From Minisyncoccota bacterium (lineage in GTDB: Bacteria > Patescibacteriota > Minisyncoccia > Phycocordibacterales > UBA9973): DNA of 64,000 bases. The stretch spans positions 316,692 through 380,691 of the forward strand of contig JAQULK010000001.1 in assembly GCA_028718635.1 (NCBI GenBank). The letters run 5' to 3'. Below the pieces are notes generated by a model, which was given only the letters and a program-made list of their open reading frames with translations, ran no database searches and was not told the origin of the DNA. The position numbers and the translations under genes are program-made. Shown here in pieces: positions 49,331 to 49,466 of this stretch. Numbering within the stretch: position 1 is the stretch's first letter; each line of letters begins with the position of its first letter.

Positions 49331-49355
49331 AGTCATAAAATGATTATACATCGTT

Positions 49356-49466
49356 AATTACGGAACACAAACTTTTTTTCGGTACGGATTTTTTGAAGCT
49401 TAAAAAATCCTGAAGTTGGCTCGCCGTCGCTCGCCAAACCCCTACAAAAAGTTATGTTCCGTAATT
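49356..49466 (+). repeat. Family B element, copy B2; its last nucleotide is part of the lysC stop codon
   Basis: Core shared with B1 and B3. Confidence 0.8.

Follow-up and report, generated by a model that had tools for sequence, protein, structure and literature searches.

What does it mean when the space between two neighbouring genes consists almost entirely of hairpin-forming repeats? The question is raised by a 64,000-nt stretch of DNA from a Minisyncoccota bacterium (assembly GCA_028718635.1, contig JAQULK010000001.1), the whole of which is called the window here. In it, three minus-strand genes follow one another in the order AA_kinase ('lysC'; 49466-50374/50404, with its TAA stop codon at 49468-49466), asd (49213-48125, start codon ATG at 49213-49211) and an Orn/DAP/Arg-decarboxylase-family gene (47948-46608, ATG at 47948). 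The stop-to-start spacer between the kinase gene and asd (49214-49465) measures 252 nt, and 228 nt of it (90%) belong to two repeat elements, termed A and B. An earlier note on this DNA proposed that the elements form large hairpins in a shared mRNA and serve as processing or attenuation sites. Our analysis favours another answer: the spacer was probably built by two independent insertions of non-autonomous hairpin repeats, element A, which resembles MITEs (miniature transposable elements with inverted repeats), and the unrelated element B, into a very short gene junction.

The layout of the junction agrees with most of what had been described. The A copy beside asd (A4; 49214-49330, 117 nt, minus strand) lies with its 3' arm, GACCGCGACCTGCTTCTAACGGG, directly against the asd ATG. 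The B copy (B2; 49356-49466, 111 nt, plus strand) is a three-way-junction hairpin that reads antisense to both asd and the kinase gene; the final base of B2 doubles as position 3 of the kinase stop codon. Between the two lie 25 nt of unique DNA (49331-49355). The earlier note had placed both elements, their contacts with the neighbouring genes and the unique gap correctly, and had rightly called the spacer a stack of repeats; its length of 135 bp was that of the part upstream of A4 only. Its description of the following spacer also held: the 176 nt between asd and the decarboxylase-family gene (47949-48124) consist of another A copy (A3; 47949-48067, 119 nt, minus strand), which adjoins the ATG of the latter gene, plus 57 nt. 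Within the unique 25 nt, the minus-strand hexamer ATGACT (49331-49336) duplicates part (ATGA) of the asd start, ATGAAA, and we interpret it as the left target-site copy of that start. Six nucleotides upstream of this relic ATG stands TATAAT (49343-49348, minus strand), which is either a -10 box of the leaderless type or a relic of the codons 'tat aat' of the kinase 3' end; such codons are present in relatives, and a promoter scan called no full -35/-10 pair at this site. In the asd sense, B2 is followed by UUAACGAUG.

Relatives provided empty versions of the junction. The nearest other relatives have Asd proteins at most 89% identical to that of the window, and three were compared, L001 (89%), L005 (87%) and L008 (86%). 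The kinase-asd spacer is 9 nt long in L001 and 28 nt in L008, and contains neither A nor B; L005 carries a B copy at this junction, inverted relative to asd as compared with B2, and no A. None of the three has A upstream of asd or of the decarboxylase gene. Because they are missing from the same junctions in close relatives, A4 and B2 are read as sporadic insertions from two large dispersed families and not as an evolved attenuator of the operon. The junction of the window was probably once very short, as it is in the relatives. With B2, A4 and one duplicate deleted in silico, it reads ...AAAAGTCTATAA-ACGATGTATAATCATTTT-ATGAAAAAATTC and aligns with the short spacers of L005 and L008. Two alignments fit the terminal 'gtgTATAAT' of the relatives, one with TATAA before B2 and one with GATGTATAAT after it; under either alignment the reconstructed ancestral junction is short.

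The wider family of element A was collected with the two 12-nt termini only, from one genome per species, which returned at least 120 loci; 127 copies entered the statistics, and 115 of these could be oriented by their internal asymmetry. Copies are 109-133 nt long (median 116) and bounded by CCCGTTAGARGC...GCYTCTAACGGG; the exact termini were set by the search pattern, which makes their universality partly circular. The outer arms of 12 nt extend to 13-14 bp, most copies carry the inner arms CGCGRTCGC/GAYCGCGAYCT, and the family has a second inner stem or a local 3' hairpin besides a variable, A-rich interior of ~70 nt. In 'type 2' copies, about one third of the family, ACGG, a local hairpin and CTGC before the 3' arm take the place of the long-range inner stem. 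All four copies in the window have the 5' arm CCCGTTAGARGC-CGCGRTCGC and the 3' arm GAYCGCGAYCT-GCYTCTAACGGG around an A/T-rich interior that cannot be aligned across the four. A3 and A4 are 85% identical over 96 nt (family D4) and 81% over 74 nt (family D5), interior included. The copies span many lineages of the Candidate Phyla Radiation (CPR), among them Paceibacteria, Nomura-, Kaiser-, Taylor-, Sung-, Lipton-, Jorgensen-, Azam-, Zambryskii-, Moran- and Levy-/Microgenomates and metagenome-assembled genomes (MAGs) labelled Saccharibacteria; a few MAGs labelled as other phyla also carry A. A search of viral contigs with the A termini gave no match.

The position of A is strongly constrained. 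ATG or GTG followed immediately after the YCT-GCYTCTAACGGG arm in 104 of the 115 orientable copies, 99 of them with an open reading frame (ORF) of at least 60 codons, and a start codon stood at the opposite end in six. In the window, the 3' arm of every one of the four copies touches the ATG of a real gene: besides A3 and A4, A1 (245-361, plus strand) adjoins a UvrD/PD-(D/E)XK helicase-nuclease gene, and A2 (14333-14449, plus strand) follows the TAG stop of an upstream ORF at a distance of 1 nt and adjoins a NusB-NUDIX gene at its ATG. The genes downstream of A are ordinary housekeeping genes. On the left flank, 86 of the 127 copies carry ATGNN(N)T, with the ATG 5-7 nt before the 5' arm. This flank copies the gene's own first bases, that is, the start codon and 1-3 nt, as in ATGCAAT|..|ATGCAAT, ATGGAGT|..|ATGGAG and ATGTAT|..|ATGTAC; five matching nucleotides and then T is the commonest form. 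Two further A copies, met in loci selected for B and not for A, show the same duplication.

Pairing also continues beyond the element. The search pattern did not cover the 13th pair, which joins the base preceding the element to base 1 of the start codon; of the 127 copies, 109 have T-A there and 16 have C-G, the latter being those with GTG starts. The 14th (-2/+2) is A-T in 100 and G-T in 19. Inside the stem, position 10 is Watson-Crick paired in 125. With these pairs, the A helix reaches into the start codon across the family. At A4 the predicted stem ends at the AUG, and in the centroid structure the A of the asd AUG is paired with the U that precedes the element; with the left flank ATGACT only this 13th pair (U-A) is possible, position -2 being C.

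Some copies are arranged differently. Tandem arrays of two or three A elements, separated only by a 6-nt flank (ATGAAT or GTCAAC), were found at L035 (~6504-6630), L057 (1009-1160) and L064 (1157-1437), as though insertion had re-created a target that was then hit again. A minority class is flanked by GTTGAC..GTTGAC, the right copy forming a -35 box, for example TTGACC-17-TATGAT-7-ATG in L116. A same-strand ORF ends at most 60 nt upstream in 77 of the 127 copies, and in about 25 of these the upstream gene stops either at the TAG within CCCGTTAG or, by the TGA of ATGA at -5/-4, in the left duplicate. Where a stop and a start codon abut or overlap, the duplication would thus allow the genes on both sides to survive an insertion.

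These flanks also bear on transcription starts. Boxes of the -10 type (TAnnnT, at least 5/6 match) peak 12-15 nt before A, which is 6-8 nt before the duplicated ATG, and 30 copies have this leaderless geometry against ~6 expected. At least 13 genes of the window have it too, and visual inspection of the DNA upstream of those window starts that were examined revealed no Shine-Dalgarno-like sequence; the pattern suggests that leaderless transcripts are common in this genome. Examples of long ORFs starting 6-8 nt past a TAnnnT box are those at 6980, 10381, 22945, 55257, 59233, 59645 and 62225 on the plus strand and at 13949, 39101 and 40666 on the minus strand, the one at 62225 reading TTGACA-17-TATAAT-6-ATG. 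The idea that A targets leaderless transcription start sites specifically was weakened, as about a quarter of the copies have a -10 box at the right distance, a share similar to that of ordinary window genes, and 61% lie behind a same-strand ORF. An internal, outward-facing promoter that would explain the orientation of A was likewise abandoned: the interiors show no positional peak of -10 boxes and no positionally conserved promoter, and the ATGAAA-18-TATAAT of A3 and A4 is within chance for AT-rich DNA. No reading frame is conserved in A, whose length modulo 3 is distributed 57/36/34.

Terminal inverted repeats, flanking duplication, filled and empty sites, tandem re-insertion and subfamilies together lead us to regard A as a non-autonomous transposable element. 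It shares four of the five features that define MITEs (PMC3184786): it is small (109-133 nt, median 116, where MITEs stay under ~200-400 bp) and non-coding, has terminal inverted repeats and flanking direct repeats with an apparent length of 4-7 nt, and is dispersed, with four copies in 64 kb, at least 120 loci and both filled and empty sites.

Several observations weigh against the insertion reading. No autonomous parent, the fifth feature of MITEs, was found: about 1 Mb of loci contained no long element with A termini and no cognate transposase, the viral contigs gave none, and no transposase was linked to A or B in the loci searched. The length of the duplication varies from 4 to 7 nt, and it is absent in about one third of A copies, including three of the four in the window. 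Sequence preference and purifying selection may be insufficient to account for ~90% start-codon occupancy and a fixed orientation. The same genes carry A, with different interiors, in several species (ssb in four, prfA, tig and rplQ twice each), a recurrence that could reflect selection for A and not tolerance of it. B has no visible duplication, and its core is far more conserved than expected of junk DNA. The IS200/RAYT-like genes in the loci, described below, have palindromes of their own that are unrelated to A. Finally, the effects of A and B on RNA are those of predicted structures.

Both families apparently have not been described before. Rfam 15, applied to the whole window at gathering threshold, returned RNase P RNA and two tRNAs and nothing at A or B; permissive scans of single A and B copies gave generic miRNA-precursor hairpins far below threshold. 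The searchable literature, queried by sequence and for CPR MITEs and leaderless transcripts in CPR, yielded nothing relevant. Known systems share single traits with A. The Correia repeat enclosed elements (CREE) of Neisseria are, like A, non-coding, ~100-160 bp long and multi-copy, with terminal inverted repeats round a variable core, a short flanking duplication and a place beside genes. CREE duplicates TA and occupies varied intergenic positions in both orientations. A, by contrast, is unrelated in sequence, sits on the start codon in one orientation, duplicates ATG and 1-3 nt, spans a superphylum rather than one genus and has no known parent insertion sequence; among the MITEs known to us, none combines a start-codon position and a single orientation with so wide a spread. 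CREE are co-transcribed as long hairpins, as A would be from its predicted folds. The CREE hairpins bind RNase III, by which they are cleaved or protected, and can alter the expression of neighbouring genes (PMC2649163, PMC3184786). The Neisseria REP2 and Borrelia IR repeats are dispersed just upstream of ORFs, with the ATG in the repeat unit and internal stem-loops (PMC3184786), and in this position at the ATG they resemble A; REP2 carries its own promoter and ribosome-binding site and lacks terminal inverted repeats, while A has such repeats and no positionally conserved promoter or Shine-Dalgarno sequence.

Repetitive extragenic palindromic (REP) sequences are, like A, extragenic palindromic hairpin repeats, and their doublets (REPINs) are similar in size. 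They are palindromes of 20-40 nt, and their cognate RAYT (IS200-like) transposase gene has the same palindromes on its flanks. The HUH enzymes make no target duplication, and A has one. A also lacks the REP tag GTAG/CGTC (PMC3733652), its terminus being CCCGTTAG. Clustering of all ORFs of the loci recovered IS200/RAYT-like HUH genes (L102 4857-5638, L039 6912-7669, L243 3359-4142, L238 2879-3552 and L224 1603-2339) with Y1_Tnp matches just below or at the cut-off and the motif MPNHFHL. They are flanked on both sides by their own perfect palindromes of 23-39 nt, an arrangement in CPR genomes that resembles REPtrons. We rejected a REP/REPIN-RAYT identity for A, which has no GTAG while the RAYT-like genes are flanked by other palindromes, and likewise these genes as mobilisers of A or B, since the palindromes are unrelated and the genes do not adjoin A or B.

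Mycobacterial interspersed repetitive units (MIRUs) are found inside operons, where their ORFs overlap the stop and start codons on either side. In being fitted to tight gene junctions, A and B resemble MIRUs, Rickettsia palindromic elements (RPE) and repeats of the BOX/RUP type; A and B are each a single palindromic unit, whereas MIRUs are direct repeats arrayed in tandem and have no long hairpins. The consensus of the integron attC site, 5'-RYYYAAC ... GTTRRRY-3' round an imperfect palindrome, marks the 3' end of cassettes; this identity was rejected for A, which has the core order reversed (5'-GTTAGAA ... TTCTAAC-3') and stands at the 5' end of genes. There are also repeats by which neighbouring ORFs are extended or terminated (PMC3184786); the ~25 A copies whose TAG or left duplicate serves as the upstream stop, and B2, which completes the kinase stop, behave as ORF-terminating repeats do.

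How might such an insertion be tolerated? A would duplicate the start codon and a few bases on insertion, the left copy keeping the upstream context and the right copy the downstream start. The left copy would then serve as the 5' end of a leaderless transcript or as the stop codon of an overlapping upstream gene, and the duplication of the start codon would make the insertion non-disruptive. In RNA, the A stem would sequester the first bases of the start codon, and the downstream gene would be translated only once the stem had been opened. A ribosome reaching, or starting at, the left foot of the stem could open it, which would amount to coupling by unmasking, and RNase III could cleave it instead or in addition, as in the Correia elements of Neisseria. 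Translation of asd would now depend on the opening of the A4 stem, by ribosomes from the relic ATGACT, with TATAAT 6 nt upstream, or by kinase read-through, and/or on RNase III. Such opening by left-foot ribosomes or RNase III would explain why A insertions are tolerated.

A bolder version of the insertion reading, which we put forward only as a speculative and quite unlikely possibility, is that A is a mobile element that colonises translation starts and is neutralised at the level of RNA or the ribosome, a 5'-end analogue of an intron or a bypass element. The T4 gene 60 gap and the mitochondrial 'byps' are hairpins flanked by matching codons (take-off and landing) that are neutralised in translation. 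A is likewise a hairpin inserted between matching codons. Bypass elements lie inside ORFs, while A stands at the initiation codon, and upstream ORFs beginning at its left ATG end at no consistent place. A conserved upstream ORF or peptide from the duplicated ATG was rejected, as the stops are scattered (54 in the interior, 18 at the TAA of the 3' arm and 11 in the 5' arm). In this version, the second AUG at the left foot, being the start of a leaderless mRNA or the spot where stop and start overlap in an operon, would recruit or deliver a ribosome, and the 13-14-bp helix would bring that foot beside the true AUG. There initiation would take over, by hopping, shunting or melting of the stem; alternatively, exact cleavage at the 3' foot would restore a leaderless mRNA.

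Among the rival explanations, the model of the earlier note survives best, doubtful though we hold it to be. It places the kinase, asd and decarboxylase genes, whose co-transcription was assumed, on one transcript, with the hairpins of A and B as processing or attenuation sites that set relative expression. REP, enterobacterial repetitive intergenic consensus (ERIC) and Correia elements are precedents. The predicted folds agree with this model as far as they go. A 285-nt stretch of asd-sense RNA folded at -81.9 kcal/mol (z -6.4), with B2 and A4 as separate, stable hairpins, as had been proposed, and A4 alone at -34.2 kcal/mol (z -5.6). Because CPR bacteria keep RNase III (rnc), RNase J (rnj) and PNPase (pnp) (PMC12641178), processing of the hairpins is possible, and the predicted paired stems of 12-22 bp would offer a substrate for RNase III-type processing. 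An intrinsic terminator, defined as a G+C-rich stem with a U-tract after it on the transcribed strand, was rejected for both elements, as the scan called no terminator-like site at A3, A4 or B2. A strong promoter-like sequence (TTGACA-16-TACAAT at 48110-48083, minus strand, 11/12 match) lies in the 57 nt between asd and A3, with a predicted transcript start ~8 nt before the A3 hairpin; as TTGACA-16/17-TACAAT it is conserved downstream of asd in L005, L008 and the window, and A follows it only in the window. With this promoter and the TATAAT of the 25-nt gap, co-transcription is no more than an assumption, and the promoter counts against the model. B2 is, moreover, in the minority antisense orientation of its family, and A and B are recent and sporadic at the kinase-asd locus. 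The hairpins and the retained RNase III speak for processing or attenuation, and the lack of a terminator and the relatives' junctions without the elements speak against it; any role of A and B in processing or coupling is one that we infer.

A second alternative, which we consider unlikely, is that A is a cis-regulatory RNA selected by the host, which would act at the start codon as an operator of translation or as a site of processing and be read by a CPR-wide protein or RNase, its spread by duplication being secondary. Such a role would suit the same 12-nt termini across many CPR lineages, the strict orientation with zero spacing to the AUG, a stem that enters the start codon with compensation between T-A/ATG and C-G/GTG, and the recurrence at ssb, prfA, tig and rplQ in different species. 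The ACGG, hairpin and CTGC module conserved before the 3' arm of type-2 copies would fit as well, as would an interior whose sense strand is A-rich (A 0.40 versus T 0.30, with A exceeding T in 87 of 115 copies). However, A is absent from the same genes in close relatives, the genes downstream share no function, and the tandem arrays and the copies forming -35 boxes have no such role. The duplication of the start codon is a hallmark of insertion, and the exactness of the termini was partly imposed by the search.

Element B belongs to a different family. A search of metagenomes with a gapped core pattern returned at least 120 loci. The core, GGUACGGAUUUUUUGAAGCUUAAAAAAUCCUGAAGUU-P3-AAACCCC, is 62 nt long in nearly all and 61-63 nt in 121 of 129 distinct copies, and stands on a stem of 25-30 bp whose sequence is hypervariable between copies while its complementarity is kept. 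The consensus of 90 diverse copies is a three-way junction with strong covariation in P1, P2 and P3: 94.7% of all cells were paired, against 83.3% in shuffles, doubly-changed cells numbered 274 against 98, and the covariation score was 0.291 against 0.096, with none of 500 shuffles as high and slid controls at most 68% paired. A hammerhead reading (CUGAAGU...CGAAAC) was rejected, as stem II is absent and the would-be G12 covaries. All three window copies lie on the plus strand. B1 (3395-3505) and B3 (52799-52911) are 90% identical; B3 fills the spacer between the saccharopine-dehydrogenase-like and the carboxynorspermidine-decarboxylase-like genes, beginning 8 nt past the upstream stop (which ends at 52790) and ending at the downstream ATG (52912). 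No direct repeats were visible at the flanks of B1-B3 or of the L005 copies. The L005 copy (9890-9940) has an extra hairpin of ~32 nt in its P2 arm; because similar expansions recur in metagenome copies (L145, L160 and L229), P2 appears to be a tolerated insertion point. Two A copies were found in 823 kb of B loci, and B was seen in only one of the A-selected loci (L036); given this near lack of co-occurrence, A and B are taken as independent families.

Whether B is a functional module at the 3' ends of transcripts, a terminator, stabiliser or protein-binding small RNA, and not a selfish repeat, is a reading that we consider improbable, although B may be such a module. It would account for the nearly invariant length of the core and the covariation of its stems, for the usual position of B, which begins at the stop codon upstream or within a few nucleotides of it and leaves 0-30 nt to the gene that follows, for an orientation that follows the upstream gene 66:30 and is random with respect to the downstream gene, and for the A-runs and T-runs at the stem base of many copies. 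Against it, a third of the copies are antisense, B2 among them, and the counts of G-U and A-C mismatches (23 versus 36) do not point to either strand as the RNA. Up to three copies occur within 6 kb, B is inverted between relatives at the same junction, and there is no Rfam match. On its sequence features, B works like a mobile palindromic repeat without being a classical MITE, having neither the conserved inverted termini nor the duplication of one. That the repeats are chance low-complexity palindromes or assembly artefacts has practically no probability: short palindromes are common in an AT-rich genome, but the window contains seven matches to the A terminus (0.14 expected) and three to the B core (0 expected), all seven A and B copies fold far better than their shuffles (z -4.9 to -6.9), hundreds of independent copies occur in unrelated assemblies and the stems covary.

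The genes around the junction point to a different pathway from the one implied by their earlier names. The neighbourhood comprises genes for MreC, queuine tRNA-ribosyltransferase (TGT), the decarboxylase, Asd, the kinase, a hypothetical protein, the saccharopine-dehydrogenase-like and the carboxynorspermidine-decarboxylase-like proteins, and the same set occurs in relatives. The segment 46608-54165, from the decarboxylase, which has a C-terminal SEC-C motif, through the carboxynorspermidine-decarboxylase-like gene, looks like a polyamine cluster and carries four of the seven A and B copies of the window. The kinase is short, and no ACT domain was detected in it. An aspartate-semialdehyde-dependent carboxy(nor)spermidine route is an established pathway; because the neighbours match it, the 'lysC-asd' pair probably feeds polyamine and not lysine synthesis. 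On this reading the earlier gene names need revision. Just downstream of the cluster, at 54355-54662, lies an ordinary bacterial class A RNase P RNA (111.9 bits).

Other repeats were noted in the window. Two G+C-rich palindromic direct repeats of 45 nt, 93% identical (46042-46086 and 46378-46422), lie in frame inside the TGT ORF (45201-46598, plus strand), where both read as the same 11-residue peptide; they resemble in-frame palindromic insertions of the Rickettsia RPE type. Family C consists of G+C-rich hairpins, CACCTCCCCCTTAATAAGGGGGAGG...GGGTGGGGG, at 5993-6032, 16980-17019, 22152-22192, 23908-23975, 32754-32793 and 45145-45207, which are intergenic, in both orientations and REP-like. Family D (CCTCGCCCGTAGGGCTATGGCCGAGGGC) comprises short G+C-rich palindromes at 21826-21868, 22803-22833 and 53336-53378, which are often followed by T-runs and could be either REPs or terminators. 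At 23193-23531 a 51-nt unit occurs five times (family D2; alternating 90/54-nt spacing, 61-75% identity), probably as a repeated protein motif in a large ORF.

The CPR or Patescibacteria account for much of bacterial diversity. Most are uncultivated, and the expression signals of their tiny, dense genomes are poorly known; A and B occupy some of the few non-coding bases of these genomes. What look like 'intergenic regulatory hairpins' in an individual CPR genome may be sporadic mobile insertions, as those at the kinase-asd junction probably are. A offers a ready marker of true start codons and of leaderless or overlapping junctions in CPR annotation, and poses a puzzle, in that its insertion either finds the ATG or survives only there. 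Filled and empty orthologous starts are natural experiments on initiation and coupling in organisms that are hard to manipulate. If A does colonise translation starts and is neutralised in translation, a host factor shared across the CPR would read its termini, and the family would show how CPR bacteria initiate translation without Shine-Dalgarno sequences.

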